Shown: positions 1 through 34,220, counted from the stretch's first letter. The stretch is 64,000 bases of DNA from Trueperaceae bacterium (GCA_965213925.1 OZ243927.1:3456001-3520000); one strand, 5' to 3'. Numbers and translations are program-made. Notes: generated by a model not told the origin, from the letters alone.

Positions 1-31
1 TCGCAAGAGATGCGCGCAACTCGCGCACAAC
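1..31. repeat. 34-bp lox-like site #1 (left end cut by window edge)
   Basis: ...TCGCAAGAGA TGCGCGCA ACTCGCGCACAAC; matches the other copies. Confidence 0.75.
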
Positions 32-112
32 TGCTGTAGCACACCCGTAGCGGGTTCCGCCTCTCCCTTCGAGGGCACGTCTCGATTGTTAGGAGCGAAG
101 GAAACGCACTTA

Positions 113-1039
113 TTAGGGCTGCGCCAGCTCGCGCTCCAGCGCCTTCCGGTCCCAGTTCGCCAGCTCAGCCGCCGCCTCGTAGGTGCTCTGCAAGAAGTCC
201 AAGAGCGCGGCGTCAGGGTCGGTAGCTTTCCGCACCGCCTCATAGGGCAGGATAAATTCGCCCAGCGCGTTATGGTAGTACGCTTCGGCAGGGCGGACCT
301 CGTAGCTCCCGAAGCCCTCCGGCTCTGGGTAAGCATAAGAATAGAAGGCGGCGCCACCCAGCTCCTGGCTCAAGAAGAAGCCTGCGCTCGAGACCTCATG
401 CGAGTAGGCTTCCTGCATCACCCAGTCCGCCACGTTAGGCGCGCCGCCCGGGTGTGTAGGCGCGGGTCGCCCGGAAAAGCGGGTCACGGCCAGGTCGAAC
501 GCGCCCCAGAAGAGGTGAATCGGGCTCGCCTTGCCGACGAAGTGGGCGCGGAAGCGCGTGAACACCCGGTGAACGTGCAGGAGGATTTGCCACAGTTGTG
601 TAGCGCCTATAGGGTCGTAGGCCGCCTCCCCTTCATGCTCATGGAAGGGTTGGATGGGATGAGGCAGCTCGACCGGCACGGGCCAGATGTCCACCTCGAG
701 GTTTAGTTCTTTGAGCAGACGAAGAACACCGTAGTAGAAGTCCGCCACCGACATCGAGCGTAAGGGTAGGGTGCGTACCGCGCCCTCCAACGTGCGCACA
801 ACAAGCTGGTGGTCGTGGAAGTCGAACTCGAGTTCAAATGTGCGTGTTCCATAGGGAATGAGCGAGGTGCTCATTCCCCGCGCGGTGAGGTAGAGGGGAA
901 CGTGCCAGGAGTGGTTGGTCCAGGGCGTCCGCTCGAGCCGAATCTTCCCGACAATCTGGCTCCAGAGGTGCAGGGTGTCGTAGGTCTCGCCCCAGCGTTC
1001 GAGCGGCAGGGGCGGCCAGACGTTTTTGGCTTCCATCAA
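113..1039 (-). CDS. DUF5996-type hypothetical protein
   Basis: 308-aa ORF with TLHLWSQIVGK, NHSWHV, HLFWGAFDLAVTRFSG and FYSYAYPEP motifs. Confidence 0.8.
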   Translation of the reverse strand: MMEAKNVWPPLPLERWGETYDTLHLWSQIVGKIRLERTPWTNHSWHVPLYLTARGMSTSLIPYGTRTFELEFDFHDHQLVVRTLEGAVRTLPLRSMSVADFYYGVLRLLKELNLEVDIWPVPVELPHPIQPFHEHEGEAAYDPIGATQLWQILLHVHRVFTRFRAHFVGKASPIHLFWGAFDLAVTRFSGRPAPTHPGGAPNVADWVMQEAYSHEVSSAGFFLSQELGGAAFYSYAYPEPEGFGSYEVRPAEAYYHNALGEFILPYEAVRKATDPDAALLDFLQSTYEAAAELANWDRKALERELAQP

Positions 1040-1177
1040 TCTCTCCTCAAACTTTCCTCTAAGCGTGATGGGGGAGGCTTTTACCTATAACGTTGATGCT
1101 CGAAGCTCGCATCTCGATATTTATCTCCCCCTCGATTCTGTTTATGGCATAGGTTAGCGCGACCCCTATGAGCAAGA

Positions 1178-2788
1178 CTAAACGGTGCGCGCGGAAGGCG
1201 CTTTGTACCGTTCTAGCCAGTGCCGCGCCGCCCGAACATCGCCGTCACCCAGGACATGATCTGCGTCCTCCTAGTGCAGTGTGACCTCCGCCCCAGCCTT
1301 TTGCAGTATCGTAGCCAGCCGAAGAGCGTTCTCGGTCGGGATGAGGGGATCACGCCGCCCGGCTCCTAAGAACACCGCAACGCCGCTTAGGTCTGGCAGC
1401 TGATTCTCAAGAGTTCCAGGGTCAAGCGGTATCATCGGCCTGAAGAGCACGACTGCGCGGAAGAGCCCAGGGTGACGCAGCATCGCTGCTGAGGCGATGT
1501 TCGCCCCGTTGGAGTAGCCGACTGCGGCGACGCTGTCCGCACTGAAGTCATAGGCAGACGCCGCCTGCACCACGAAGGTGGCAAGCTCATCGGCGCGGCG
1601 CTTCACGTCGTCCTCGTCGAACACGCCCTCCTCCAGGCGGCGGAAGAAGCGGGTCGAGCCGCGCTCGAGCACCTTCCCGCGGGGGCTCAAGAGGTTGGCG
1701 TCGGGGTGGAGCGTCTGACCCAGCGGAACGAGGTCGTTCTCGTCGCCGCCCGTGCCGTGCAGGAGCAATAGGGTCTCGTCCGCGCCTTCTTTAGGAAGCC
1801 AGCGGTGGATGAAGCCGAGCTGCGGTCCCTCGAAGGTCGCGCGCTTTTCAGCTTGTACCGAAGTCGGTAGGTGGAGGGGTGGTAACACTGCCTCGAGCCG
1901 CCCCCTCATCCCTTCGTACTGCGGCGGCAGCTTGAGCACTCCGCCAAGTTCATCTATGGGTTCGTCCACCGTGAAGCCGGGCGGGTCAGTAGCGACCTCG
2001 AAGAGCGCGCCGCCGGGCTCACGGAAGTAGACCGAGCGGAAGTACTGCCGGTCGACCTGTGGGGTGGGGGCTAGCCCGCCCTTAGCCAGGACCTGCCTCA
2101 ACTCGAGCTGCGCCGCGTCGTCCTCCGAGCGAAACGCGACGTGGTGGACCGTGCCTGCGCCCAGTATACCGGGCCAAAAATCTTCAGCCACACGTATATC
2201 GACCACGCGACCCGGACCTTCCCCCGCAACGTATCGGTGGACGAAGCCCTCCTGAGCGTCCTCGCGGAAGCCTAGGTGCTCAGTGAGAAGGCTCGAGGTC
2301 ACGCCTAGCCGGTCCTCCCAGAGCGTCACGCCGAAGATGCCGCGGACAGCGTGCTCGGCGGGAAGAGGCGACTCTCGCCAAGGCGCGGTCGCGCTTGCGT
2401 CCTCGTCAGCGACGAGCTCGAGCCTCAGCCCGTCCGGGTCGTCAAAAGCCAGCACGCGTTTACCGAAGCGCTCCTCGGTATCAAAGCGCAGATTGCGCGC
2501 TGAGAGCCGATCTAGCCAGAACCCCAGGGACGCCTGTGGAATTGAAAGGGCCACAGACGCGAACTGCCCGGTGCCGCGCTGCCCGCACTGCGCCCCGGGC
2601 CAGGGGAAGAAGGTCAGGATCGTGCCGGGCTGACCCGACGTATCTCCGTAGTAGAGGTGATAAGTAGTGGGATCGTCAAAGTTGACCGTCCTCTTGACTA
2701 GCCGCAAACCGAGAAAGCCCGCGTAGAAGTCTAGGTTGCGCTGCGGGTCGCTCGCAACGGCTGTAACGTGGTGGATACCGCTCGTCAT
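1178..2788 (-). pseudogene. Ring-cleaving dioxygenase (MhqO-like VOC) fused to MhqD-like alpha/beta hydrolase; premature TAG at 1271-1273
   Basis: GIHHVTA...KRTVNFDDP N-terminal domain; LHGTGG and GYSNG hydrolase motifs; frame continues after TAG as EDADHVLGDGDVRAARHWL to a stop at 1178. Confidence 0.8.
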
Positions 2789-2893
2789 AACGCTCTCCTT
2801 CAGGATCATCGAACGATCCTTTGCATGGCTCGAGTGTAGACGGCGTCGAGGCGATCTCTCAAGACACCCAATTCGCCTCTTCTTGACCGATAT

Positions 2894-3718
2894 TTAGATC
2901 GCCCGGTGTTGTTTGCGGTACTGTAGGGGGGTCATCCCGTGGCGGCCCCGGAATTTGCGGTTGAAGTAGGCGGGGTCAGGGTAGCCGACCCGCTCGCCGA
3001 TAGAGGCGACGTACGTGTCCTCCCGTAAGAGCAACCGGCGCGCCTCAGCCATACGCCGCTCAGCGATCCAGTCATTCACGGTGCGGCCGGTCGCTTCGCG
3101 TACAGCCGTCGTGAGGTAGGCAGGCGTGAGGTGAAGCGTGCTAGCTACGTCCGCGAGGGATAGCGGCTCTCGAAATTTGACTTCGATTACGTCGAAGACG
3201 CGAGCCAGGAGGGGCTGCACCGCGAGCGGCGCGGTGCCGTAGCGCTCGGCGCTGAGCCGAGCGGCGTCGACGAGCAGGAGGCTCAGAAGTGCTCGGCTCG
3301 CCTCCTCAGAGCCAAGGTCTGTTCCTTTTGTCTCGGCTTCGAGCCTGGTCAGGCTCGTTTCCCACTGCGGGCGGTCATTGGGTGGCACACGGAGCGGCTC
3401 GGGCTGCGGCTGTATGAAGGCGAGGAAGAGTGGGTTGCAGAGCCAGTAGAAGAGGACGTGGCTGCGCTCACTGATGGGAACGAGGGGTTCGGGGACGAAG
3501 GTGACGATGTCGTAAGCAGCCTGAGCGAACCTTCTCGGCTCGAGCCGCTCGTTCGGTGCGGCGAGGTAGAGGTCGCCTTCGCTTACAGCCCCGGACGTGG
3601 CAACCTCTCGGATATAGATGAGGCTTGCCAGACCGTTCTGCTGCACTATCCCATCTGAGGACAACTCCCCTTGTGCATGCGTAGCAAGAATTTGGACTAG
3701 CTCAGTTGAAATAGACAC
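2894..3718 (-). CDS. AraC-family transcriptional regulator
   Basis: C-terminal double HTH (VGYPDPAYFNRKFR...TP). Confidence 0.9.
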   Translation of the reverse strand: MSISTELVQILATHAQGELSSDGIVQQNGLASLIYIREVATSGAVSEGDLYLAAPNERLEPRRFAQAAYDIVTFVPEPLVPISERSHVLFYWLCNPLFLAFIQPQPEPLRVPPNDRPQWETSLTRLEAETKGTDLGSEEASRALLSLLLVDAARLSAERYGTAPLAVQPLLARVFDVIEVKFREPLSLADVASTLHLTPAYLTTAVREATGRTVNDWIAERRMAEARRLLLREDTYVASIGERVGYPDPAYFNRKFRGRHGMTPLQYRKQHRAI

Positions 3719-3818
3719 CTCGGGTATTGTAGCGCCTGTCTAAGCATAAGGTGTCAGTGTCACCTTATCCCGCTCATAAGCTAGTCAGGTAAGTCCCCAA
3801 AGGCCGTAAGCGCGCGGG

Positions 3819-3852
3819 CTTTTGCGAGAGATGCGCGCGTCTGTTGCAGAAG
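3819..3852. repeat. 34-bp lox-like site #2
   Basis: CTTTTGCGAGAGA TGCGCGCG TCTGTTGCAGAAG. Confidence 0.85.
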
Positions 3853-3882
3853 CTTTTACCTTCACCGAGCAACGTCGCCGCC

Positions 3883-4512
3883 GTGTTAAGCTCCCTCAAG
3901 ACTTTGCTGAGAGGGCACGGTTTGACTCCCGCTGACACTGACCTCGCGCTTCTTCGTAGCGCCTTTGAGCGCTTCGTCCCCCTATCAGACGAGGTATGGG
4001 CGGAGGTCAACACGCTGTGGCACGTCCGTAAGGTTGAGCGCAGCACTACCCTCACGAGAGTGGGCGAGACGGAGCAATCGTTCGGACTCGTCCTCGAGGG
4101 CGTGCAGCGCCTCTACTTCACCACGCTTGACGGCGCTGACGTCACCGTCGCCTTTGCCTACCCCCCGAACTACACGGGCGTCCCCGACTCATTCTTTCTC
4201 CAAGCGCCCTCTGCTTATGCGCTCGAAGCGCTTACTGACGGGCGCATGCTTTGGATTGATTACGCAAGCTTGATGTGGCTCATGGACCGGCACCGCGAAC
4301 TCGAGCGCTGGGCCTGGCGGCTCCTTGCTGCCGCCGGAGCGGGCCGGGGCAAACGCGAACGCGAAGCCCTCACGCTCTCAGCAGAGGAGCGCTACGCCCG
4401 CCTCCTCCGTGAGTCGCCCCACCTACCTGACCTTGTCGCACAACACCACTTGGCCTCGTACCTCGGCATGACCCCGGAGACGCTGAGCCGCATCCGCGCC
4501 CGCTTACGCTGA
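3883..4512 (+). CDS. Crp/Fnr-family regulator (start uncertain)
   Basis: cNMP-binding-like domain plus LASYLGMTPETLSRIR HTH. Confidence 0.88.
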   Translation: MLSSLKTLLRGHGLTPADTDLALLRSAFERFVPLSDEVWAEVNTLWHVRKVERSTTLTRVGETEQSFGLVLEGVQRLYFTTLDGADVTVAFAYPPNYTGVPDSFFLQAPSAYALEALTDGRMLWIDYASLMWLMDRHRELERWAWRLLAAAGAGRGKREREALTLSAEERYARLLRESPHLPDLVAQHHLASYLGMTPETLSRIRARLR

Positions 4513-4575
4513 ACGTCTTGACGCCCTTGATATAGGTCAATGCGCTCGGTGCAGGTTATCCCGTAGCCTAGCGGT

Positions 4576-5448
4576 ATGACCCACAACATCCCTACTTGGC
4601 TCGACCGCGACCTCTATCCGTTCGCACCTCACACGTTCGAAACTGAGTACGGCAAGATGCGCTATGTGGACGAGGGCAACGGCCCGCCTATCGTCCTCGT
4701 CCACGGGACGCCGACCTGGTCGTTCTTGTGGCGAGGGCTGATTCGGACGCTTGCCAAGACGCACCGCGTCGTCGCACCCGACCACCTCGGATTCGGGCTG
4801 TCCGACAAGCCGCCTGGCGCGCCTTACCGACCCGAAGACCAAGCGACGCGGCTAGAGGCATTGATCAAACATCTTGGACTCCGCGACATCGTGCTTGTCG
4901 TGCACGACTTCGGCGGGCCAATCGGTCTTTCTTACGCCACCGAGCACTCCGCAAACGTGCGCGCACTCGTCCTCTATAACACTTGGCTCTGGTCGCAAGC
5001 CGACGACCCAGCGGCGGTGCGGGCTAGCCGCCTGCTTGGGGGCTCCTTAGGTCGGTTCCTCTACACCCGCTTCAACCTCTCGCCGCGCGTTCTGCTGCCG
5101 ACCCTCTTTGCTGACCGCTTGAAGCTCACTCGCGCTGTGCACCGCCACTACCTATGCCCCTTCCCTAACGCACGCAGCCGATACGCACCAGCTGTGCTCG
5201 CCCACGAGCTCATCGGCTCCAGCATGTGGTTCGATAACTTATGGAATAGGCGGGCTGTGCTTGCTGACAAGCCTGCTCTGCTTGTGTGGGGCGAGAAAGA
5301 CAGGGCGTTCGGACTCCAGGACTTGCAGCGCTGGCAGGAGGCGCTACCCAGAGCAGAAACGGCGCTGTATCCCGAAGCGGGTCACTTCGTGCAAGAGGAG
5401 GTACCTAGCTCTGCGGCGCGGGTAGCCTCATTCGTGCGTAAGCTTTAG
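4576..5448 (+). CDS. Alpha/beta hydrolase (haloalkane dehalogenase-like)
   Basis: VHGTPTWSFLW, VHDFGGPIG (Asp nucleophile), AGHFVQEE. Confidence 0.88.
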   Translation: MTHNIPTWLDRDLYPFAPHTFETEYGKMRYVDEGNGPPIVLVHGTPTWSFLWRGLIRTLAKTHRVVAPDHLGFGLSDKPPGAPYRPEDQATRLEALIKHLGLRDIVLVVHDFGGPIGLSYATEHSANVRALVLYNTWLWSQADDPAAVRASRLLGGSLGRFLYTRFNLSPRVLLPTLFADRLKLTRAVHRHYLCPFPNARSRYAPAVLAHELIGSSMWFDNLWNRRAVLADKPALLVWGEKDRAFGLQDLQRWQEALPRAETALYPEAGHFVQEEVPSSAARVASFVRKL

Positions 5449-5572
5449 GACGAGACATCCCGTCGAGCCACCTCATAGGCAATCTGAGTACAGGGCTTTC
5501 GCCTCAATGTATTAGCAATGACCCACGCACACCTCACCACTCGTGCTGCGCTGGAGGCGCAGGTCACGAAGT

Positions 5573-5606
5573 CTTCTGCGCGAGTTGCGCGCAACTGTGT
5601 CCTTGA
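5573..5606. repeat. 34-bp lox-like site #3 (right arm degenerate)
   Basis: CTTCTGCGCGAGT TGCGCGCA ACTGTGTCCTTGA. Confidence 0.7.
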
Positions 5607-5639
5607 GGAATAGGCGAAGGCTTTATAGTAAATGTGCTT

Positions 5640-6350
5640 ATGAAGAGGATTATCCTGATCGCCGCCGGACTCGCCCTCATCACTGTGGCTGCTGCCGCTA
5701 TCTACTTCTACTTTACAGACCCCGGTAGGTTGACGACATCACCTGAATTCGCCGAATTAGAAAAATCTGTGTCAGCCGGTACCCTTACCTCGCGAGCCGA
5801 CCCCGCCATGAACATGATGTTTGACGAAGACTACGAGTACATCGGCGGTCAAACGTTCGAACTCTACGGCACCGCTGATGTTGAACAGCATTTCTTCGTC
5901 GAGGAGCATCCGGACGGAAGTTTGAAAAGCCTTTTCTGGCTGCAGTTTGAAGGCTTTTTGCCTAGCAACGACTACGCCTATGATTACACTGACTCTCCGC
6001 TTCGAGTCGAAATAGACGGCCTCAACTTCTATACGGACACAGCAGCAGGCATTGACGTTAGGTTCTGGCGGCTTGGCTCACCAGGAACGGACGGCTACCT
6101 CGTGCGCAAGTTCCTTGCTGGCAAAGGCTACAGCTACCCTGACGAGTATTTCTACGCGCGGCTCGTTCATATCCCGGACTCGGCCCGCCGCAAAGAGCTC
6201 CTCATCATTTTTATCGACGACCTAAAGCCCTCGGGCTTCGCTGCGGCGGAGCTGCGCGAGGGCGGAGAACGTGAGGAAAGCTGGCTGGAGGTCGAGGCGG
6301 CGCACCTGGAAAAGATCAGGAACGTCATGACGCTGAGTCAGCTTGAGTGA
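5640..6350 (+). CDS. Hypothetical protein with N-terminal signal/anchor
   Basis: MKRIILIAAGLALITVAAAAIYFYF followed by a soluble domain. Confidence 0.7.
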   Translation: MKRIILIAAGLALITVAAAAIYFYFTDPGRLTTSPEFAELEKSVSAGTLTSRADPAMNMMFDEDYEYIGGQTFELYGTADVEQHFFVEEHPDGSLKSLFWLQFEGFLPSNDYAYDYTDSPLRVEIDGLNFYTDTAAGIDVRFWRLGSPGTDGYLVRKFLAGKGYSYPDEYFYARLVHIPDSARRKELLIIFIDDLKPSGFAAAELREGGEREESWLEVEAAHLEKIRNVMTLSQLE

Positions 6351-6416
6351 GGCACCGCCTGGAATCGGTATTCAGCTAAGTACCGGGGCAGAGTTCGGGC
6401 GGAGATTTGCATAGAC

Positions 6417-6450
6417 TTCGTGCGTGTGATGCGCGCGTCTCTCGCAGAAG
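6417..6450. repeat. 34-bp lox-like site #4
   Basis: TTCGTGCGTGTGA TGCGCGCG TCTCTCGCAGAAG. Confidence 0.85.
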
Positions 6451-6459
6451 CACCATAGT

Positions 6460-6912
6460 TCAACCGAATAGCTGTGCTGGCATCTCGACCTGCGCGCCCA
6501 TCGCCTTAGCGATCCGCTCGAAGTCCTGCGGGCTGATCTCGAAGAGCCCGCGCCGGAAGGGGAAGCCCCACTTCCGTTTATCAGTAACGAAGGTAAGGTC
6601 TTCTAGTAGAGGACGTACCGGTGCTTCTTTCACCCCTTTGAAGCTCACCTTACGTCGCCAGGGATGAAAGTCGGACGTCATCTCGACTTGATAGGGCTCG
6701 TTGTCTATGACTCTGCCCAGGGCGGTGAATGCCTGCAGCACCTCCCCACCCCTAAAAGCAGTTCTAGGAGAGTAGAAAATCAGCATGTCCCCCATTCTTA
6801 GACGCTCGAGGCGTGTGCGCTTGCCGTGATCCGCTTGGGTGAAGCCGCCCTCGACCCCCGCCCGTACGTGATCGCGCGACACTGTGTTGACCCAGTAATG
6901 CGCCTCAGCCAC
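6460..6912 (-). CDS. EVE (PUA-like) domain protein
   Basis: YWVNTVSRDHV..GV.GGFTQADHGK, FYSPR, WGFPFRRGLFEI; GTG start overlaps the upstream stop. Confidence 0.85.
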   Translation of the reverse strand: MAEAHYWVNTVSRDHVRAGVEGGFTQADHGKRTRLERLRMGDMLIFYSPRTAFRGGEVLQAFTALGRVIDNEPYQVEMTSDFHPWRRKVSFKGVKEAPVRPLLEDLTFVTDKRKWGFPFRRGLFEISPQDFERIAKAMGAQVEMPAQLFG

Positions 6913-7279
6913 GGTCGTGAAGGGTGATGAGGTAACCCTTAGGGTCCCGGACGGAAAAGGTCTTGCCAAAGGGACCGTCTACTAGGTCCGACGTGACCTC
7001 AACCCCCTTGTTAACCAGATGGTCACGTAGCTTCGCGCTGTCGTCTACCTTGAACCAGAGTGCCACGCCATGACCCCGATGTGGGGTGAGGTCTAGATTG
7101 ACGAGCGGCGTTCGCACGGCGAAGGCGATAGGCTCGGTAGCGAAAACAACTGCACCGGGCGGGCTCTGCGGGGCGAGTGCTAGCCCTAGCGTCTCGTGGT
7201 AGAAGCGTTTGCCAGCGTCCAAATCGCGCCACTGCAGCGCAATGAAGTCGGGACCGTCAACCTTTGTTTTTACATTCAT
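6905..7279 (-). CDS. VOC/glyoxalase family protein
   Basis: FYHETLGL, GPFGKTFSVRDPKGY. Confidence 0.85.
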   Translation of the reverse strand: MNVKTKVDGPDFIALQWRDLDAGKRFYHETLGLALAPQSPPGAVVFATEPIAFAVRTPLVNLDLTPHRGHGVALWFKVDDSAKLRDHLVNKGVEVTSDLVDGPFGKTFSVRDPKGYLITLHDRG

Positions 7280-7293
7280 TCTTGACCTCCTAT

Positions 7294-7341
7294 TTATCAG
7301 TACCCTGATAACTTGTAGCTAGATTATCAGCACCCTGATAT
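7294..7341. promoter_or_regulatory. Two palindromic operators, probably bound by the adjacent MarR
   Basis: TTATCAG-TACC-CTGATAA (7294-7311) and TTATCAG-CACC-CTGATAT (7324-7341) between divergent genes. Confidence 0.7.
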
Positions 7342-7352
7342 AATGTCAAGCC

Positions 7353-7790
7353 ATGAAACTGACCTCTGATCCTCTCGGCTATCTCCTCAAGCGCGCTCAG
7401 TCGGCGCTGCGCAGCAACATGGATGCAGCGCTCGCGACACTAGACCTTACGACCCCGCAGTACGCCGCGTTGGGCGAGCTGGTGAAGGAGCAGGGGCTCT
7501 CAAATGCCGAACTTGCTCGCCGCTGTTTCGTAACACCTCAGACTATGTACCAGATCGTGATCGGGCTCGAGCGTGGCGCGCTGCTAGAGCGCTCGCCGCA
7601 CCCCGAGCATGGACGTATTCAGCGGGTGAAACCGACTGCTGAGGGGCAAGCGCTCTTGGAACATGCTCACAGTTTAGTAGCTGAGGTTGAAAAGCGGATG
7701 ACGCGGGAGCTGACACAAGTGGAGATCGAGCAAGCGTGTGCGCTGCTAACAAAATGTTACAAGGGGCTGGAGAGTAAAGACGGAGCCTAG
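7353..7790 (+). CDS. MarR-family regulator
   Basis: LTTPQYAAL, LSNAELARRCFVTPQTM winged HTH. Confidence 0.9.
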   Translation: MKLTSDPLGYLLKRAQSALRSNMDAALATLDLTTPQYAALGELVKEQGLSNAELARRCFVTPQTMYQIVIGLERGALLERSPHPEHGRIQRVKPTAEGQALLEHAHSLVAEVEKRMTRELTQVEIEQACALLTKCYKGLESKDGA

Positions 7791-7817
7791 AACCTATCGG
7801 CGAAAGCTGACCAACGG

Positions 7818-7851
7818 CTTCTGCGCTTAACGCGCGCGTTTGTTGCAGAAT
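7818..7851. repeat. 34-bp lox-like site #5
   Basis: CTTCTGCGCTTAA CGCGCGCG TTTGTTGCAGAAT. Confidence 0.85.
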
Positions 7852-7881
7852 GGATCATCCGCTAAGTTCTGCATCATTCGC

Positions 7882-8385
7882 TCAGCCAGCTTCCCTCGTC
7901 TTCAACGCATAGCAGCGACAGAGGATTTTGCGACGAATTTCCTGGACAAACCAAGAAACTCTTTGCAACCCTCCGCCATGCGCTCTGACAAGTGGGCGTC
8001 GGTATGCTACTGGATGAGATAGGGCAGCAGCCAGCCCCCCAGGAGCTGGCCGTCGTCGAGGACGCCGAAGTGCCAACGCAGGTCGCCGCGGCTCACAGGG
8101 GTAGCCTCGCCTAACGAGAAGGGGGTGCGCGCTTGCAGCGCGGTGATGTCCGGGGTGTTGACTACCCGAGCGAGCAGCTACGGCTGCCGCGCCAGCCGGA
8201 CCCGCAAGAAGGGGTCGTCAATCCCGTACCAGCGCGGCCTCACGAGTGCGGGCGCGTCGGGCCGGGCGCGACACCTCCAAAAAGACCTCGCCGCCGAGCC
8301 GCATCAGGTGGTTGTAGGTGCCCACCGCAGGGTGCTTCCCACCCGCTGGGATGTCGATCCCGAATTGGTCACCGCTACAACCTAG
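7882..8385 (-). pseudogene. Decayed Glyoxalase_3/VOC gene
   Basis: Fragments GGKHPAVGTYNHLMRLGGEVFLEV, RPRWYGIDDP and LPYLIQ*, with stops and frameshifts. Confidence 0.65.
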
Positions 8386-8443
8386 GGCAAGTAACCATTA
8401 ACTCGGTGATGAGCCGCTACCAGAAAAGGAAATAGTACCTGAA

Positions 8444-12094: not shown

Positions 12095-12176
12095 TATGTG
12101 CGTATCCTCAGAAAGCTTTGCACCTATTTGAAGCGCGACGGTTCTATTTGTTTGATAACATCTGTCGCAGAATAGC

Positions 12177-17753: not shown

Positions 17754-18300
17754 TACGCTGGTTGGCACAAAACGTGGCGCTAGGCGATTTTCTTTGCTCC
17801 AAACAGCCTTGGTTGCTCAAAATGACTTAGAGAAAATAAGCTCGGAAGGGGCAAGGCGGCGCGCATCTCGGTAAACGACCGTTTTTGCAATCTGTTCAGC
17901 GTCTGGCTGTGACTGGTTAAACCACCTACGCTCATTGCAACCGAGTTTCACTGTCAGATTTATCGTCTAATTCTATCCACAGGGCAGGTCGAATACCGCC
18001 ACTATCTTTAGGTCTGCCATAGACACCATCGCCACGAACATAAATACGTCCGTATCTATTTACACTGGCAGCAGTGCGACCATAATAGCCTGGTGAGCGA
18101 AGTCGCCACCAATAGAATTTACTTTATCTTCTTTAGTGACCCCGACGGCAACAGTTAGGCAGTGCAGCAAATCTCGAGCCGCAGTTGAACGAGGTAATTT
18201 TTATACGTGTGAACAGGCCGAGGCGTGCGTAAGTCTTCTGCGTGTGGTCGGGTAGCAGGAGACCGTCACTGGCCTCCCGCCCCTAAGAGCCGTGCGTGCG

Positions 18301-20736
18301 GTAGGGTAGGATGCCAGCGAGCTGCCTATCAAAGATAGCGCTTTTCCAACATCCCCCCTCCGAACCCCGCATGACCGCTTTCCGTGTCACGGGGCTCTCC
18401 AGTAATCTCAACATGAAAGTCCTTTCCCGTGGTAGTGCCCTTTATGGATGTCTTGGTGGCAGGTGAGGCAGACCACCAGCGTCTTGCGTCGGCGAGCCGA
18501 CATCCTTTGCATCCATTCGGGCCGTGACTTACGCCCTCTTTGTTCAAGGTCTGCCAGTTTTCGGACGTGATGCACTTCGACGTGCTCCACCGACCCACAA
18601 AGCTCACAGCTTTGCGCTAAAAGGCGGTCCACCACTTCATTACGCCCGTTCCAAATCTTACTGTTCTGGTTGTCGTCCAAGGCTACCCATTTGTTCCACC
18701 GTAACGGGATGCCGCCAAAGTGGGTGATGAGTGGCTTCTTTTTAGGACCACGGTCCACTTTGACTTGAAGGACTTTATAGCTGCCCTCCTTGAGGTCGAT
18801 GGTGGTGCGGTAGCGCCGATAGATTTTCTGGCAACTCGTCCTGAACTTATTCGCCAGCGTTTTCACTAGCGAGAGTTCTGTGACGCGCTTGAGTCGGCCC
18901 AGCGTGTGGAGGTTGTAGGCCATGCGGTAATACTGCACGACCCCGCGGTATTCCGCTTGATATTGGCTGACGATGCTGTAAGCATCGCTGCTGAGCCTTT
19001 GTGGGAGGTGAATGGGCTTGCCGCGTCGCATGTACTTGGCGCAGTGCGCTTTCATGACGTGCGACGGTACCCGGAGTCCGACGCTGCCGTTGATGCAGCG
19101 TTGTCCCCGGTGGTCGTGTTTATCGTCAGCGTGAAGAATGTGGACCTCATAGCCCAGGAAACGCGCTTTCTGCGTGCGCGCGTGGGTCAGCAGGGTCTTA
19201 TCCTCGCTAAGCTCAAGCTTGAGTTCGTCGCGTAAGAAGGCGGCAATCTCTTGCTTGATAGCCACGGCCTCGTCTTTTGGCCCTTTCAGCCCCAGCAGAA
19301 AGTCATCGGCATACCTTTGGTACCACAATCGCCGGAAGTTCGGGTCATCGGGGTCGCGCGACGGCATTGTCTGGGCCTGCTGGCTCAGTTGCCGCGCGGT
19401 CTCCCAGTTCCCTGCTTTCCGAGCGTCGTGAGCGGCTTTGGCGATGGCGACATACGGGGGGTAGGTCTTGCGGCGTTCGCCGCGTGTGTAAGCTGGTATC
19501 AGTTCGTGCTCGACAAACTTGTCCAGCCTGTCCAGAACCAGGTTGGTGAGGATTGGACCGACAATCGACCCTTGCGGCACACCGCTGTAGGTCTGGTGAA
19601 AGGTCCAGTTCTCCAGGTAGCCAGCTTCGAGCAGCCCCTTGATAAGCCGCAGGAAGCGGTTGTCGTGGAAGCTCTTCTGCAAGATGTTCAACAAGACATC
19701 GAAGTTAATCTTGTCGAAACACGAGCAGATATCTCCCTCGATAAACCACTTTGTACCTCGACCCTCTTGGGTGACTTTGCGCAAAGCTGTGTGGCATCCC
19801 CGTTTCGGTCGAAAGCCGTGAGAACGGTCGCTGAACCGCGGTTCATAATAGGCTTCCAGGATGGAGCGGATAACTTCTTGAAGAAGTTTGTCCGACCAGG
19901 AAGGCATCCCTAGAGGCCGCATCTTGCCATTCTTTTTGGGAATGTAACGGCGTCGTACCGGCGTCCACCGATACCGCTCTTGGCGTAGCGCCTCGATGAT
20001 GGTATCAATTTTCGCTAGGGACATCCCGTCCACGGTTTCGTCCGAGGCACCTGGTGTCAGTGCGCCTTCGTTCTTGTAGAGCTTGGCGTAGGCGCGCAGG
20101 TAGAGGTCAGGCCGGTAGAGTAGGCGATACACCCTTTTAACCGGCAGGCCACGCTGGCCGCGTTCACGTAGGATGGTGAGTACCGTTTCGGCGGTTCGCA
20201 TCTCGCGTACCTCACAGTTCCTTTCCATCATGATTACCTGGTCTCCTTCGCCCTGCGAACGGCTCTCCCGCTCTCCCTGGTGGGGCGTGACGCCCACGAC
20301 TACTACGAGACCTCCGTTACCTTAGGACTCGCGTCCCTTAGGCAATCCCGTGTTTCGTCACTGAGGAACGTGCTAGAACGACTTAGGCTCGCCACTCATA
20401 GCCTTGGATGAACTCATTGTTCATCGCCCATCAAGCAGAGCGTCATTTGGACGAAACTTGAATCCAAATGTCCTGATGGCGTCGGTGTACAGACGTGCTA
20501 CCGACGGGTGTGCGTGACCACCGCTGGCTATTGGCGTTCAAACAATCCAGTCTTAGCCTTATCATTCAGGCGTTGCAGAGCCGCATCGTACACGTCTTCC
20601 TTTGCGCTCCGCTTTAATGCCATGCTCTTGTCCCCTCCCTCCTTTCGAGCTCAGGTTAGGCATCCGCCTCGGGGTCGTTTGCCCTGAACCCCGGCCAACT
20701 CCGTTGGCAATTCACTCAATGCGCACCACGGCGCAC
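18301..20736 (-). mobile_element. Inner group II intron (IIA, mitochondrial-like/Ll.LtrB type), apparently intact
   Basis: 5' GTGCGCCGTG at 20736; DV GAGCCCCGTGACACGGAAAGCGGTCATGCGGGGTTC; 3' ...CCTACCCTAC at 18301. Confidence 0.9.
18408..20201 (-). CDS. ltrA: Group II intron reverse transcriptase/maturase with HNH endonuclease
   Basis: IPKKNGKMRPLG, HGFRP, GVPQGS, RYADD, C-terminal CELC..EVHH..CLTCH. Confidence 0.95.
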   Translation of the reverse strand: MRTAETVLTILRERGQRGLPVKRVYRLLYRPDLYLRAYAKLYKNEGALTPGASDETVDGMSLAKIDTIIEALRQERYRWTPVRRRYIPKKNGKMRPLGMPSWSDKLLQEVIRSILEAYYEPRFSDRSHGFRPKRGCHTALRKVTQEGRGTKWFIEGDICSCFDKINFDVLLNILQKSFHDNRFLRLIKGLLEAGYLENWTFHQTYSGVPQGSIVGPILTNLVLDRLDKFVEHELIPAYTRGERRKTYPPYVAIAKAAHDARKAGNWETARQLSQQAQTMPSRDPDDPNFRRLWYQRYADDFLLGLKGPKDEAVAIKQEIAAFLRDELKLELSEDKTLLTHARTQKARFLGYEVHILHADDKHDHRGQRCINGSVGLRVPSHVMKAHCAKYMRRGKPIHLPQRLSSDAYSIVSQYQAEYRGVVQYYRMAYNLHTLGRLKRVTELSLVKTLANKFRTSCQKIYRRYRTTIDLKEGSYKVLQVKVDRGPKKKPLITHFGGIPLRWNKWVALDDNQNSKIWNGRNEVVDRLLAQSCELCGSVEHVEVHHVRKLADLEQRGRKSRPEWMQRMSARRRKTLVVCLTCHQDIHKGHYHGKGLSC

Positions 20737-20771
20737 ACTTTCACCGCACACGGCTCAAGCCAATCACGAAG

Positions 20772-20906
20772 CTACCGCGATAAGCTCGTAGTAGCCCTGA
20801 AGATTCGCCCTCTCAGATTGCGAACCCGCCAATTGACAGCTCGCCAGTTCACAGCGTGCCAGTCCGTAGGTCCTTCGGTTTCGTTTGCAGAGCTTCGGGC
20901 TCGCAT
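20772..20906 (-). pseudogene. 44-codon N-terminal stub of the outer intron RT (RVT_N-like)
   Basis: MRARSSANETEGPTDWHAVNWRAVNWRVRNLRGRIFRA..*, ending just before DV. Confidence 0.7.
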
Positions 20907-21639
20907 CTAACTTCCCCTTAGTTGGCAACCTTCAGAACATCTCTCTAGGAGATTGACCAGTCCCACGTCAGCACCCTTTCGGGTTGAGTATCGGCTCTAT
21001 CTAGCCCCTTATGATTTCGGGTCGCCTTTCGGCGGCTAGCCTTCGCTTCTTGGGACCTCCTATGCCCGCTGGAGCGTTCGGCGTTCCTTACGGTTCGCTT
21101 ACCTGCAACAGGACTCCAACGGGGTTTCCGTGTTCCACTTGTGTGAGCTGCGACCGGGTTAGGCGTGCTCTCTACTCCGGGGTCATGGTGTCCTCGTGCA
21201 GAACGCGCGTACTCTCTGCACCTGTTGAGGCGAGATACCTTATCCTTAGCCTCGACCCGACCATGCCTTATCAACCATCCTTCGACAAACCGAACTAACG
21301 GAGCTTTGACCGAGCATTCACGTTCGTTCGCCTTACCGGTCTTTCCCTCACCCGAGTCTCTACGATGGTTTAGATTCTCTTAGGCTTTACCTCCAGCTTC
21401 ACACCTTGCCATTACTGGCAACGCATGTGGAAGTCGGGAATGAGCCTGGACACTGGCTCAGAGTTCTTTTCCTCCTTCCTAACTCACTCACTTCAAGCGA
21501 CTTCACGTCGCACACGCGCGCGTTAGTCGCAGCAGGATAGAGATTCTAAATGTCCGGAGAGCAACCCCTTTCCAAAAGAAAAGCCGTAGAAAATATCGAA
21601 CAAAGCTGAGCTTCAACGCGCCTTAGAAATCGGAAAACT

Positions 21640-24506: not shown

Positions 24507-24509
24507 GCG

Positions 24510-25310: not shown

Positions 25311-25331
25311 AGCAATTCGCCCAAGTACTGA

Positions 25332-25555
25332 TAGCACTTCCAAGATGTACTGAGACAAATGAGCGCAGGTATCATCCCGGAACGTGCGTGCTGAACTGTG
25401 TTTTCTACAGTGAGAGTGTTGCTTCGCATAACTTCGTTCACTCAAACCAGATGATACCTGCTATGAGTTGGAATAGCGCAAGTCTCATTTTCAAGCGTAT
25501 GTGCTTAGCAGTGTTCCATTCAGTGAGCGCGTTCCAAACCAAATGATACTTGCTA
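25332..25555. repeat. Two adjacent MITE-like repeats (25332-25463; 25474-25555)
   Basis: TAGC...ATGATAC(C/T)TGCTA termini; relatives at 42440, 43688 and 50352. Confidence 0.65.
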
Positions 25556-25574
25556 CGAAGGAGGCGAAGAAACC

Positions 25575-27113: not shown

Positions 27114-27123
27114 GCCGCAACTT

Positions 27124-27894: not shown

Positions 27895-28005
27895 AGACCG
27901 CTCGAGTTTTCATATCGAGTCTCTCCGCGGTGGATTTTGCAGCGGATGTAGACGCAGTGCGACCTTTTATCACCACAAACTCCAACCGTAAAGAAAGGAC
28001 ACCCC

Positions 28006-29238: not shown

Positions 29239-29393
29239 GGTTTGACAGAGAGATGAGGGTAAGGGGGATAGGGAGAAAAAGCGTTGCCGCCTCTCCCTTT
29301 TCCCTGTCCTTTCAGAAGATACAGTGCAACGCCTTCTTTCTAACTCTCGCGCTCACATCACTTTTAACGAGCTGCGGATAGGAAACAAACACC

Positions 29394-29597
29394 ATGCGCG
29401 TCTTGGCAGGCTCCGAACTCAAGGATTTGGAACCGCTTCTTAGCGACACCAAACGCGAAACGAGGGTGGCGCTCGAGCTTCCCGATAACGAGATGAAAGA
29501 GTCCGTTCAGAACTTTAGCCGTAAGAATACAGATAAGCGCTTGTCGCACGTCAGATTTCGGAGGAGAAATTTGGGAGGAGAAATTTGGGAGGAATGA
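29394..29597 (+). pseudogene. N-terminal fragment of a substrate-binding/vWA protein
   Basis: RVLAGSELKDLEPLL motif, after which similarity is lost. Confidence 0.5.
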
Positions 29598-29709
29598 CCT
29601 ATTCGTGCAGTAAACTTCTATGACAATATGTACTGAACGGTCAATAGATTGTGGTTCCTTTGATCTCTGCGGAATAACTGCGTATTTCAGCCTAATTTGA
29701 CTATTGATT

Positions 29710-31401
29710 GGCTCTTACGAAAGTTGTGTGGTCAGGCAGCCAGCAGCACCTTTTGCCTGAGCAGGTCAAAGCTAGCGCGTCCATACATCTGCCGCTTGAG
29801 CAACTTGAGCTTAGTAATTTTACCCTCGGTCGGTCCATTGCTCCACGGCAGAGTTAATGCCACTTCGATAGCCGCCTTATCGTTGCTGAAACCTTTCGCC
29901 AAGCGAGCGAGTTCATCAACGCCGCTCGCTCTTTATGGTGTCGCTGAGCCAGCGTTGAAACGCCGCTATAGTTTCATGGGGTGCTCGTTCCTTGCACCTG
30001 AATAGCGCGACGAAGCGTTGCACCAGGTCGTAGCAACGCTCCGCTTCTTGCGCACCCTCGAAGAGCCGCTCGAGTCGTTTGAAATCGTGCTGAGTTAGCG
30101 CCCCTTTTGAGCTTGTAAATAAGCGCGTCGCCTCATACGCCGAATAACGCATGACCCTTTGTCTCTTGTCTGCCCTCGAAAAGTCAATGCCCGCTTCCAA
30201 CTCGGCAAAGTAGGCGTAGACGAGACCATAAGCACCGGTGAAGCCCCGCGCCGTGATCTCCCGGTAGAGCTGCATCTTGTTGCCGATGCCCGCATCCCAT
30301 CTTTGTTTGAGATAGGGTTCGTAGGGCGCTAAGATGCGATTTTTCTGTCTATCAGGATACGTACCCCGAGCAAACCAACGGCTCAGCGTGCTCCTGCCGA
30401 CACCGAGCTTGGCAGCAATCTTAGGAAGACTAAAGCCGTCCGCTTCTAAACGCTTGGCTTCTTCGAAGATGGCTCGGCGTTTGCGGCGCGTCTCGAGCTT
30501 CGCTTGCAGCGCCCTTTCGTAGCTGGTGCGGACGTGAATCTGCTGAGGCACATCGCCGCCAGATTCGTGTCCATCATCAGAAAGCTCAACCAGATACTTT
30601 TTATGGCGCTCGCACCAGCGTTTCAAGAGGTCGCTGAAGTTTTTGAGCAGATGCCAACGGTCGGCGACCTGAACCGCTTGGGGTGCGCCCTCGTCGCAAG
30701 CGGATTTGTATTCCTGAGAGCGATCGCGAGAGATGGTTTCGACGCTAGGATGCGCCTTTAGCCAGTCCACCAGGGTTGCTGAGCTTCTGTCGGGTAGAAC
30801 GTCGACCACTTCGCGTTTTTCCAGGTCAAGCAACAGGGTGCCGTAACTTTCCCGTTTCCGAATAGCAAAATCGTCCACACCCAGCACGCGCGGTGTTGCT
30901 CGTGTCACTAAGCTCTGGGTTCGGACAAGGTCGAGCGCGCTATCGTGGCTCACAGGCATCTCTAACTGTCCGAGCAGGTCTTCGCTCGCTTTAGCGCTTA
31001 GAGAGGTCGCCACACGACGTTGCGCGTCGCTCAAGCGTTTGCTTCTATGTGCGTAACGCGCCAGCCAGGGGTCGAAAGACTCTGCGAACGTTCTTCTCTC
31101 ACAGCAACGATTTAAGCAGTAGAACCGTTTGTCTTTGAGACGCAACTGAACTGTGTGATCAGCCAGGGGCAAATCAGCAGGATGGCGTTGGTAGTAACCA
31201 CTTACCTTGTTTGATAGCGCCTGGCAGAGCGGACAATTCGCCTCCGTTTTACGTGAGCCGTGAGCACCAAACCACCTTCGCGAACTTTGAACGCTTCGAT
31301 GACACACGCTGGAAACAGGATATCGAGCATCCTTCATGCTGTTCGCTAGCCCTTCAAGATGCAAGACCCAACCCAGTTCCCACAATTCTTTCGTAAGAGC
31401 C
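29710..31401 (-). mobile_element. ISL3-family insertion sequence with frameshifted transposase (29732-31330)
   Basis: IRs GGCTCTTACGAAAG at both ends; CP.C, LGVDDFA, ISRDRS..Y, QVADRWHL, WSNGPTEG..KLKLLKRQMYGRA; frameshifts near 31250 and 29925. Confidence 0.9.
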
Positions 31402-31460
31402 ATCAAGTGCCCAAATTAGATGGTATACGCAATAATGGAAAGGCTCGGGTGCGTAGCGTC

Positions 31461-31494
31461 CTTGTGCAACGAACGCGCGCGTTAAACGCAGAAG
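31461..31494. repeat. 34-bp lox-like site #7
   Basis: CTTGTGCAACGAA CGCGCGCG TTAAACGCAGAAG. Confidence 0.85.
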
Positions 31495-31562
31495 GGTGTG
31501 CGCTTGGCTGGAAAAGTATCCAGCCAAGCGCACACCCTCTTCAAACTTTTCGGTCTGCTAGC

Positions 31563-32312
31563 TTAGAGCTGACTCATCCCACCATCCGCCGCAATTTCGG
31601 TGCCGAGGATGAACGAGGCGTCGTCCGAGGCTAGAAAGGTGACGACCTTAGCGATCTCTTGGGACGTGCCAAAGCGCTTCATCGGAATCTGCTCTAAGAT
31701 GCCTGCCGCCATCCCTTGTATTTGCGCCTCATCCATACCCAGCTTGCCGTAGAAGGGCGTTTCCACAGGACCGGGGCTTACCGCGTTCACCCGGATGTTT
31801 CTAGACAGGAGTTCCGCCGACACGGTGCGGATGAGGCTGAGTAGCGCGGCCTTGCTCGCGGCGTAAACCGTGGTCATGGGCATCCCGATATGAGCGTTGA
31901 TCGAGGTGTTGAGCACGATGGACGCGCCATCGTTCATGTGGGGAAGCGCTTTCTGGATGGTGAAGTACGCGCCTTTGAAGTTGACGTCCATGATCCTATC
32001 GAAGTCCTCCTCCGTCATCTCGCTGAGCGGCTTGAGTACCGCTAACCCTGCGTTGACAAAGAGGATATCGACCTTTCCGAAGGCTTCTCGGGTCTGTTCG
32101 AAGAGACGGTCTAAATCGCTGAGCTTAGTAACATCCGCTCTTACTGCTATGGCGTCGCCACCTATCTCGTGCGCCGCCTTCTCTAGTGCTCCTTCGTCCC
32201 GCCCCGAGATGACAACCTTCGTACCTAGGCGTACAAGTTCAGCCGCCGTCGCTCGCCCGATGCCGCTATTACCGCCCGTGATGACAGCGACTTTGTCGGT
32301 TAAGTCAGGCAT
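31563..32312 (-). CDS. SDR oxidoreductase
   Basis: TGGNSGIG, YAASK. Confidence 0.92.
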   Translation of the reverse strand: MPDLTDKVAVITGGNSGIGRATAAELVRLGTKVVISGRDEGALEKAAHEIGGDAIAVRADVTKLSDLDRLFEQTREAFGKVDILFVNAGLAVLKPLSEMTEEDFDRIMDVNFKGAYFTIQKALPHMNDGASIVLNTSINAHIGMPMTTVYAASKAALLSLIRTVSAELLSRNIRVNAVSPGPVETPFYGKLGMDEAQIQGMAAGILEQIPMKRFGTSQEIAKVVTFLASDDASFILGTEIAADGGMSQL

Positions 32313-33250
32313 CACTCGCCTCCTAGGAACTCGAGCAATCGCTCTGTGAATACCTCAGGTACTTCTTCAGGCACCCAGTGCCCCGAGCCTTCAATCATAC
32401 CACCTTGTACGTTCTCGGCATAGGCTTTTACCTGTTGAGGGACGAAGCCACCCAAGCTACCCTCAGCTCCCAGGGCGAGTACTAGCATAGTCAGCGGGGT
32501 CTGCGCATAAACCTCGTTCTGCGCTACGTCCTCTGGGAAGGCACGGAAGTAGTCGAAGCTCGCTTTTAGCTTGCCAGGCTGCGCGTAGGTGCGGGCGTAT
32601 TCGGCAAAGTCGGCGTCGGTAAAGCCCTCTTGATTGACCGTTAAGGCGCGAACGAATTGCTCCAGGAAGTATTGCTCTTGCCCGGCAATGATTGTTTCGG
32701 GCATCTCAGGGAAGCTGAAGAATCCGAAGTTCCACGCGCCAAAGCCCGTCTCGGTGATGGCAGGAAAGGTGTAAATGCTGGCGTCGGGAATAGGCGCTTC
32801 GACCAGCGCAAGGCGGCGCACCTCTTCCGGATAAGCGGCGGCGTAGGCGTAGGCAACCATCAGCCCGATATCATGCCCTACCAAGTTGATTTCACCGTCG
32901 CCGTACCCAAGGTCTTGAACCAGAGCGCGGATGCGTTCGGCGGTCGTCGCTTTGTCGAAGCCGCCCTCTGGTACCTCCGAGTCTCCGAGTCCTGGCAAGT
33001 CAGGGGCAATGACGGTGTAACGCTCGGCTAAGGCGGGCATCACCTTGCGCCACATATACCAGGTCGAGCCCCAGCCGTGTAGTAAGACTAAAGGTTCTCC
33101 TTCACCGCCGATGACATAGTGGAGTTCGCCCGCGTCCAGCTCAGCAACCTCACTGCTGAAGCCTTCCGGTAGGAGTGAAGGGTCGGGCTGAGCGAACGCG
33201 GTCGCCGCGAGAAGCACTAGCAGTAGAAAAGAACACCTGATGACTTTCAT
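32312..33250 (-). CDS. Secreted alpha/beta hydrolase (epoxide hydrolase-like)
   Basis: Signal peptide, HGWG, GHDIG, GHWVPEE; GGAGG RBS. Confidence 0.85.
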   Translation of the reverse strand: MKVIRCSFLLLVLLAATAFAQPDPSLLPEGFSSEVAELDAGELHYVIGGEGEPLVLLHGWGSTWYMWRKVMPALAERYTVIAPDLPGLGDSEVPEGGFDKATTAERIRALVQDLGYGDGEINLVGHDIGLMVAYAYAAAYPEEVRRLALVEAPIPDASIYTFPAITETGFGAWNFGFFSFPEMPETIIAGQEQYFLEQFVRALTVNQEGFTDADFAEYARTYAQPGKLKASFDYFRAFPEDVAQNEVYAQTPLTMLVLALGAEGSLGGFVPQQVKAYAENVQGGMIEGSGHWVPEEVPEVFTERLLEFLGGE

Positions 33251-33375
33251 GGTAAACCTCCTTGAGCTTGAGTCTCGAGTCTTTCTCGAAACCTGTTTCA
33301 AGGCTCGCCTATCTGGATTAGTCCGTGTGTACAGACCTGTACACGCCCTCTCGGTGAACTGTGACACCATGAGTC

Positions 33376-34131
33376 ATGTCTAAAGAACCTAATCATGTCA
33401 AAGCACGAACGTCTTCTCCCGCCTTGCGGGGTGGGGTATGGGTCGCACCTGACAGCGGAGCGCTTAGCGATGACCCTACGCTCGATCTGGACTTCTTCGA
33501 TGGACGTTATCTCACCCGAGCCTTCGACCGGGGCGACTTCGTGTTCCGGGCTGGCGACTCGGCAGACGGCTTTTACATGGCGCTGGCAGGGCGCATCAAG
33601 CTCGTCTTGCCTGACCCTGTACGAGGGGAGCGCGTCGTTGCCGTGTGCGGCGAGGGCGACCTGTTCGGCGCGGCGGCTTGTGGGGGTGCGCCGGTGCACC
33701 GCGCGGAAGCGGTGAGTTTGCAGGAGGGAACCCTCGTTGTGAGCCTCTCCTGCGCCGAGCTGCAGGAGGCGACCAAGGGTACGCCTGCCGTGGCGCTCTT
33801 GCTCACCCGAGCCTTAGCCGCGAGGGTGCAGACCCTCGAAGAGGAGGCGGAGTTCGCCAGTTTGCCAGTGCAGGCGCGACTCGCCCGAACGTTGCTTGAC
33901 CTCGCTAAGCGCTTAGGTCAAGAAGTCGAGCCTGGGGTGTATGACCTCGAGCTTGCCCTGAGGCAAAACGAGATCGCCTCGCTCGCAGGGGCGACCAGGG
34001 TCAGCGCGACGCAGGCGCTTTCTGCCTGGCGAGATATCGGTGTCGTGACGGGTACACGCGGCTCCTACCGAGTGGACGTAGCGCGACTGGAGTCACTTCT
34101 GGACTTGCTCGAGGATGCGGCGGTGCGCTGA
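33376..34131 (+). CDS. Crp/Fnr-family regulator (start may be about 33431)
   Basis: cNMP-like domain, QNEIASLAGATRVS HTH. Confidence 0.88.
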   Translation: MSKEPNHVKARTSSPALRGGVWVAPDSGALSDDPTLDLDFFDGRYLTRAFDRGDFVFRAGDSADGFYMALAGRIKLVLPDPVRGERVVAVCGEGDLFGAAACGGAPVHRAEAVSLQEGTLVVSLSCAELQEATKGTPAVALLLTRALAARVQTLEEEAEFASLPVQARLARTLLDLAKRLGQEVEPGVYDLELALRQNEIASLAGATRVSATQALSAWRDIGVVTGTRGSYRVDVARLESLLDLLEDAAVR

Positions 34132-34186
34132 AAACGTCTTAATTTACATGGGTAACGTGATCTCACAACTTCTTTATGCTGTGGGC

Positions 34187-34220
34187 GCTGTGCGTGAGTA
34201 GCGCGCGTTCGCCGCACAAT
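34187..34220. repeat. 34-bp lox-like site #8 (last copy seen)
   Basis: GCTGTGCGTGAGT AGCGCGCG TTCGCCGCACAAT. Confidence 0.75.

Follow-up and report, generated by a model that had tools for sequence, protein, structure and literature searches.

Eight copies of a 34-bp intergenic site punctuate the left part of a 64,000-nt stretch of DNA from a Trueperaceae bacterium (GCA_965213925.1, OZ243927.1:3456001-3520000; hereafter the window, with all coordinates referring to the whole 64 kb and counted from its first letter). Each site consists of a GCGCGC that never varies, flanked on either side by a 14-nt arm (CTTCTGCR-NNNRAY), the two arms being inverted relative to each other. By elimination of other explanations, and from the way in which arm types are distributed among the sites, we consider that these elements may be crossover points for recombination between blocks of accessory genes; among the explanations weighed here this is the best one, and we hold it tentatively, as somewhat short of probable.

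All eight loci listed in an initial annotation of the window are indeed present at the coordinates given there. The consensus written in that annotation matches none of the eight copies exactly and four of them with three mismatches or fewer, and 100 shuffled sequences returned no match at all. Conservation within the arm resides in an outer TTCTGCR and an inner RAY. Scanning the window with a position weight matrix (PWM) derived from the half-sites, for full sites as well as for half-sites, gave scores between 30.3 and 43.6 bits for the five full sites (Table 1), compared with maxima of 6.1-21.8 bits in 20 Markov shuffles; the three incomplete loci, namely the site split by an intron, the site at the window edge and 5573, have full-site scores of about 13 bits or less (5573: 13.2). 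A repeat search that is independent of the motif also recovered the family (repeats D1, D3, D12 and D18). Comparison of the 60-nt flanks indicates that conservation ends at the 34 bp and, as these flanks share nothing, a larger element enclosing the site, such as a miniature inverted-repeat transposable element (MITE) or an attC, was ruled out.

The 13-8-13 geometry that had been proposed for the sites fits formally, but a 14-6-14 layout describes them equally well. Either layout is present in seven of the eight loci, the exception being 5573, which is without a right arm, although this is a weak test that any 34-bp dyad would pass. The 10-bp cores (GCGCGC plus two flanking bases per side) are perfectly palindromic in four of the eight sites (7818, 31461, the split site and 5573), and consequently the sites lack a loxP-like polarity.

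Several smaller features were seen at or near individual copies. Only the right arms of 7818 and 34187 begin with A rather than C, and the 9 nt outside these two arms (7852-7867 and 34221-34236) are alike at eight of nine positions (GGMTCATCC). A weak arm-like sequence of 10.2 bits is found just past site 7818 (7866-7882), and a lone, intergenic right-arm-like sequence without GCGCGC at 12157-12173 scores 12.7 bits, inside the null range, and is either a decayed site or chance. The window itself starts 3 nt inside a site, which is improbable for a random cut considering that sites cover <0.5% of the sequence; the contig may end at window position 1, perhaps because the assembly broke off where a junction is variable.

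As far as sequence and predicted folding can tell, the sites are better described as protein-binding motifs on duplex DNA than as folded elements, which argues against terminators, attC-like sites and classical repetitive extragenic palindromic (REP) elements. In single-strand DNA folding of six window sites, five gave z-scores of -0.4 to +0.8, comparable to shuffled sequences, and the z = -2.4 of site 5573 is due to a different small hairpin; three genuine hairpins of the same window, one of them a T-tract terminator, reached z = -8.0 to -9.0. At least 12 of the 14 arm positions are complementary in none of the eight sites, whereas five other palindromes in the window reach this level. Positions 9/26 and 11/24 are unpaired in four of six sites, and a covariation test was ambiguous with only six sequences. 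A terminator was rejected as a candidate, given the poor folding and missing T-tract of the sites and the existence of canonical T-tract hairpins elsewhere in the organism.

Conservation along the site is block-wise. All 15 half-sites agree at positions 6-7 and throughout the core, and at positions 9-11 it is 7-8 of the 15 that depart from the consensus (chi-square p = 2e-6), a pattern that is inflated to some extent by the fact that the sites were recognised via their conserved blocks. It is mirrored in both arms, with TGC and the core invariant and positions 9-11 nearly random. The three conserved blocks are ~11 bp apart and would therefore share one face of the helix.

These data bear directly on whether the sites could be a REP-like family, that is, a short extragenic palindrome that was copied by a RAYT-type (REP-associated tyrosine transposase) or other mechanism, is now decaying, and has no role in gene-block exchange other than being a safe landing site for mobile elements. 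The 34-nt size, the dyad symmetry and the intergenic location, mostly next to gene 3' ends, are what such a family would look like, and REPs have been described as insertion sequence (IS) targets (PMC1525189). Yet the window copies fold no better than shuffles, arm complementarity stays below 12 of 14 positions in all eight, and differences between copies cluster at fixed positions rather than falling randomly. We regard a REP-like origin as unlikely, although it deserves to be taken seriously.

The assortment of arms is an indirect sign of exchange. The inner 7 nt of the arms fall into five recurring types: a (GAGAGAY), b (GTGTGAY), c (AACARAC), d (GYTTAAC) and e (GCGAGTT). At all eight sites the inner 7 nt of each arm have a closer match at some other site than in the partner arm. 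The distances are 0-2 differences to an arm elsewhere for 15 of the 16 arms, as opposed to 3-6 to the partner, and the remaining one, the decayed right arm of 5573, is three differences away from both its partner and its nearest counterpart. Six pairs of sites share one arm type and just one of these six (7818/31461) shares both, while random re-pairing gives 6.2 and 0.2, respectively. Two blocks that lie 6-12 bp apart and are nevertheless unlinked can be uncoupled only by exchange at the centre. The assortment read from these sequences thus fits central exchange and not the copying of whole elements, in which, as in a REP-like family, left and right arm types would be expected to travel together.

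Sites 7818 and 31461 are inverted near-copies (repeat I2, 33 nt, 91% complementary) that span 23.6 kb. A REP-like family could produce such a pair by copy-paste; the pair fits equally the integration of a circle, a segment capable of inversion or the presence of one variant in two copies. Two further scenarios were ruled out: recent duplication of modules, since they share no close paralogues, and transposon-like modules whose terminal inverted repeats would be the arms, since the two ends of each module differ in arm type.

The genomic setting divides the window in two. Its accessory region (1-35.7 kb) encodes five alpha/beta hydrolases, several glyoxalases/dioxygenases, a short-chain dehydrogenase/reductase (SDR), a TelA/VWA/OmpA cluster and regulators of the AraC, Crp-like (two), MarR, AsnC, TetR and WYL types, together with an ISL3 element, two IS630 remnants and a group II intron. 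The core half (36-64 kb) holds opp permease genes, dnaX, recR, topA, a tRNA, ispH, pgm and pgk. The claims that the sites lie between gene modules and are missing from the core half both held up: all eight are intergenic, at junctions of self-contained accessory blocks, and among gaps of at least 40 bp a site occupies 8/32 in the left part vs 0/20 in 36-64 kb (Fisher p = 0.017), an absence that counts against a dispersed REP-like repeat. A half-site scan of 36-64 kb returned a best score of 16.0 bits, within an open reading frame (ORF), against a median null maximum of 15.3 and a largest null score of 19.0 bits (50 shuffles). The blocks between sites are 0.8-10 kb long, multi-gene and of mixed strand, and mostly combine a regulator with enzymes. 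A stop codon is found within 130 bp of six of the eight sites. Mobile elements occur at the sites as well, with the intron inside one and the ends of the ISL3 element and the IS630 remnants 42 bp from site 31461 and 120 bp from site 34187, respectively, and we count this in favour of recombination.

Could the sites rather be operators or architectural elements, with a transcription factor or a nucleoid-associated protein sitting on the three blocks and regulating or insulating detoxification and catabolic genes? Block-wise conservation of the duplex type would suit such a role, as would the many regulators encoded in the array, the position of 3819 between divergent AraC-type and Crp-like genes, and the placement of 5573, the split site and an outside relative described below (L098) 28-320 bp upstream of same-strand genes. 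Other copies do not comply. Sites 6417 and 31461 are both found between convergent gene ends, the former between two stop codons and the latter beyond a terminator hairpin (31498-31533, z = -9.0), places in which neither an operator nor an RNA element would be expected. Eight sites per 34 kb followed by none in 30 kb is unlike a regulon, and an operator role would not account for arm types being assorted at random. To our knowledge, the motif resembles no described operator, and altogether we find this role rather unlikely.

The split site (18235/21514) is divided just past its centre by a 3,267-nt, minus-strand group II intron. The intron ORF contains the Pfam domains RVT_1, Intron_maturas2 and HNH, i.e., a reverse transcriptase-maturase-HNH architecture, and the intron 5' end is GTGCG. 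Its exon-binding sites EBS2 and EBS1 (intron positions 214-220 and 304-310) pair 14/14 with the 14 nt of the site directly upstream of the insertion point, from which it follows that the intron homes to the site by sequence. Hairpin-seeking IIC introns are not known to have EBS2 pairing or an endonuclease domain. Judging from its EBS2 pairing and HNH domain, then, what this intron recognises is a sequence and not a hairpin.

The intron is full-length and antisense to both flanking genes. EBS2 and EBS1 fit a d-type arm followed by the core, and sites 7818 and 31461 are near-targets, with five of seven intron-binding site 2 (IBS2) positions.

Counted from the insertion point, the intron target, about -22 to +12, coincides with the 34 bp. 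This position and the complete EBS2/EBS1 pairing are compatible with functionless sites, either a homing-target family of the resident intron or a relic of donor DNA. We consider that very improbable: introns do not create their own targets, only the d-type arms resemble IBS2, and neither the dyad symmetry nor the seven intron-free copies would be explained.

Our search for relatives was carried beyond the window with a strict IUPAC-pattern search of genome contigs, taking 10-kb flanks, which returned at least 112 loci, none of those listed being from the window's own genome, followed by PWM rescoring of 1.49 Mb. Among the matches listed, a single one is a true family member, L098, in a Trueperaceae metagenome-assembled genome (40.4 bits); nothing else scored above 25.6 bits, and the remaining 111 loci among those listed are chance or coding matches. 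L098 is also the sole strict match listed on its 783-kb contig, whereas the window has four such matches in 34 kb. Provided that the scan covered this contig in full, the motif would seem not to be high-copy in that genome, contrary to what a REP-like family would lead one to expect. In its own shape L098 is closer to a REP, being a near-perfect palindrome that folds well (z = -3.7), and its location ~56-83 bp upstream of an amidase-like ORF, as seen in the 630 bp of the locus that were covered, is compatible with an operator. A third arm-like copy, TGCGAAAGAC, is found 4 nt past this site (L098:335-360), oriented as a left arm.

Plasmids and the literature returned little that resembles the sites. 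A plasmid collection queried with the 34-nt site gave three weak chance matches only. The left-end 8 kb of the window yielded gene matches only, at 64-74% identity, mostly to Rhizobium, Sinorhizobium, haloarchaeal and Deinococcus plasmids and also to Meiothermus; the DUF5996 and dioxygenase genes of Module 0 are neighbours on a Deinococcus plasmid too. The gene matches to Deinococcus and Meiothermus plasmids, taken together with L098, suggest the Deinococcota as the origin of the window. Neither a Deinococcus nor a Meiothermus plasmid, each scanned over 41 kb, contained a site-like motif. The motif is undescribed in the literature that we surveyed on palindromes in Trueperaceae, on REP and dif in Deinococcus, on REP combined with group II introns and on the motif itself. 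RepRanger includes Deinococcota genomes and, in the passages surveyed, such a sequence is not among its entries (PMC12306157); likewise, in the passages surveyed, a preprint on D. radiodurans FtsK uses the E. coli dif and gives no native site (10.1101/2022.07.15.500248).

How would recombination at these sites proceed? In the scheme we propose, the 34-bp duplex would be recognised by a dimeric or tetrameric protein, and crossover would be carried out by a site-specific recombinase, possibly of the tyrosine type, encoded outside the window. After synapsis of two sites, strand cleavage and exchange would take place inside the GC core, each half-site taking along the DNA joined to it. In this way blocks of regulator and enzyme genes could enter the array, leave it or change their orientation. 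The reaction would lack an inherent polarity, given that many of the cores are palindromes. The binding protein, the position of cleavage and the mobility of the modules are all points that we infer.

Our own data also contain observations that weigh against recombination. Searches for Phage_integrase, Resolvase and HUH domains returned none in the 146 reading frames of 1-36 kb (44 + 102) nor in the 23 ORFs of 36-64 kb, in agreement with the earlier remark that the window holds no recombinase; a REP-like family is not helped by this either, as it leaves the window without a Y1/HUH transposase domain. Eight unpolarised recombination sites within 34 kb of chromosome are expected to be unstable. 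Arm types are only ~2 substitutions apart, and what looks like re-assortment could have arisen by parallel substitutions in arms constrained by protein binding; furthermore, no module has matching arm types at both ends, and a simple one-step insertion is not evident. Shifts in GC content at third codon positions (GC3) are seen at 5573 and the split site but not at the others, and are weak, inconsistent and uninformative. To these should be added the position of 3819 in a divergent promoter gap, where an operator would be at home, the folding palindrome and gene-upstream location of L098, the partly circular origin of the block-wise pattern, and the small sample of 8 + 1 sites.

A bolder version of the recombination proposal is that the sites form a third gene-capture platform beside integrons and Xer/pdif: a chromosomal, Trueperaceae-like array with unpolarised, hairpin-independent 34-bp sites, crossover at GCGCGC and a remote recombinase, in which the mixed arms are a footprint of past exchange. 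We think this unlikely to hold in full. If the sites do serve recombination, modular gene exchange at short sites would extend past the integrons of Proteobacteria and the pdif plasmids of Acinetobacter, and a compact pair of 34-bp site and recombinase would be available from a little-studied, stress-resistant phylum. Even if the sites bind some other protein, their block conservation, random arm pairing and 14-nt intron pairing make a well-defined element; decayed REP-like repeats, on the other hand, would be an ordinary finding. The sites, modules and mobile elements are listed in Table 1.

Table 1. Sites, inter-site modules and mobile elements in the accessory part of the window. Arm types are given as left, right.
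Feature	Coordinates	Strand	Description
Edge site	1..31		First 3 nt missing at the window edge; arms a, e; repeat D12; right half-site 17.9 bits
Module 0	32..3818	-	DUF5996 protein, glyoxalase/dioxygenase-hydrolase fusion, AraC-type regulator (Pfam)
Full site 3819	3819..3852		Arms a, c; 43.6 bits; in divergent gap, AraC-type vs Crp-like gene
Module 1	3853..5572	+	Crp-like regulator, alpha/beta hydrolase (Pfam)
Half-site 5573	5573..5606		Left arm e and GCGCGC; right arm decayed, unrecognisable; half-site 20.4 bits
Module 2	5607..6416	+	One 238-aa ORF; no Pfam or NCBIfam match
Full site 6417	6417..6450		Arms b, a; 40.2 bits; convergent stop codons at 67 bp and 10 bp
Module 3	6451..7817		EVE-domain protein, glyoxalase (6905-7279, minus strand), MarR regulator
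Full site 7818	7818..7851		Arms d, c; 41.9 bits
Split site, left part	18235..18246		12 nt; arm type b
Group II intron	18247..21513	-	Rfam Intron_gpII, group-II-D1D4-7; ORF 18408-20297
Split site, right part	21514..21535		22 nt: core and d-like arm; half-site 19.6 bits
ISL3-family insertion sequence	29692..31419	-	40-nt terminal inverted repeats (I3); Pfam DDE_Tnp_ISL3
Full site 31461	31461..31494		Arms c, d; 41.7 bits; just beyond the strong hairpin following the SDR gene
Module 6	31495..34186		SDR, alpha/beta hydrolase, Crp-like regulator (Pfam)
Full site 34187	34187..34220		Weakest full site, 30.3 bits; two singleton arm types; last before core genes
IS630 remnants	34340..35434		Two, in opposite orientations; between site 34187 and the opp permease genes; NCBIfam transpos_IS630, Pfam DDE_3 fragment

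Other features of the window were noticed as well. On the minus strand at 34340-37046, an opp-type operon with genes for a binding protein and two permeases halts at the IS630 remnants where ATPase genes are expected, and the accessory region may have truncated it. A STAND NTPase gene at 56159-57391, with 41% GC and a GC3 of 0.29 amid a region of ~60% GC, is probably a recently acquired gene of the defence type. Tandem APP1-like phosphatidate phosphatase paralogues, 48% identical across 360 aa, are found at 48794-51706. Finally, a repeat of ~100-120 nt closed by a 12-bp stem (GCAGGTATCATC ... GATGATACCTGC) occurs at 25350-25468, 42435-42553 (minus strand) and 50440-50515, with a partial copy at 25533-25558. 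Downstream of its copies there are a gene for an OmpA-domain protein, a small ORF and a gene for an APP1-like phosphatase; an Rfam search with this repeat gave no match at E <= 1, and the element may be either a cis-regulatory RNA of an unclassified kind or a small repeat that is mobile.

Compared with known systems, the sites share with REPs and bacterial interspersed mosaic elements (BIMEs) their size, an intergenic location that is more often next to gene 3' ends, and the fact that mobile elements land in them; they differ in being poor hairpins, in the unlinked arm types, and in the lack of doublets, of copies in the core half and of a RAYT in the window. With loxP and FRT they have in common a length of 34 bp, two inverted arms and a centre of 6-8 bp that is identical between partner sites, whereas here the centre is palindromic in four of the eight, the middle of the arm is variable and no Cre/Flp-like gene was found in the window.

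Integrons and clusters of attC sites lacking an integrase (CALINs) differ in several respects. No attC is known to be as short as 34 bp, and the present sites are also unfolded and delimit multi-gene units of mixed strand. As had been noted, attC ends are lacking: the outer ends read CTTCTGCR / YGCAGAAG, without the R''/R' cores, and AAC/GTT appears only beside the centre, in d- and c-type arms. Neither intI nor attI was found in the window, beyond which the left end of the array lies. The likeness is that of an array of gene units split by imperfectly symmetric sites, one of which harbours a group II intron, and for the latter there is precedent in attC sites, which are targeted by IIC-attC and some IIB introns (PMC3001079; PMC7923331). 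The initial annotation had suggested shuffling of an integron-like or pdif-like kind. Duplex-type sites, block junctions and arm re-assortment are in line with the shuffling; "integron-like" is inapt for modules that are multi-gene and of mixed orientation.

Xer sites merit a closer comparison. The likeness to a XerC arm that had been pointed out is confined to three of the 16 arms (d-type, TTAAC or CTAAC, with TGCG-YTTAA/CTAA inner sequences) and does not extend to the others. The 11-6-11 pdif layout is absent, as the initial annotation had stated, and a pattern search of the window for the dif inner signature ATAA-N6-TTAT gave no match. A plasmid of Meiothermus taiwanensis carries a perfect 11-6-11 dif-like palindrome with identical arms (L114:34943-34974), presumably its dimer-resolution site; Xer sites of the phylum therefore look ordinary, unlike those described here. 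In relation to pdif, the sites are 34 rather than 28 bp long, with an invariant GCGCGC in place of a variable 6 bp; both arms appear to share one consensus, without a clear XerC/XerD asymmetry; no alternation of site orientation was seen, and the TGCA-AAC arm variant (type c) occurs in three sites with no alternating pattern; and the array is chromosomal, from a probable member of the Deinococcota. In behaviour, however, the pdif modules of Acinetobacter plasmids are the closest counterpart, with short two-armed sites, modules in which several genes of mixed orientation are accompanied by regulators of their own, and a recombinase encoded away from the sites, as we propose here. IS elements are reported to home to pdif sites (PMC10132070; PMC12907356) and, more generally, both pdif and attC sites serve as targets for IS and introns (PMC10132070, PMC3001079, PMC7923331), as the sites of this array would seem to have done.

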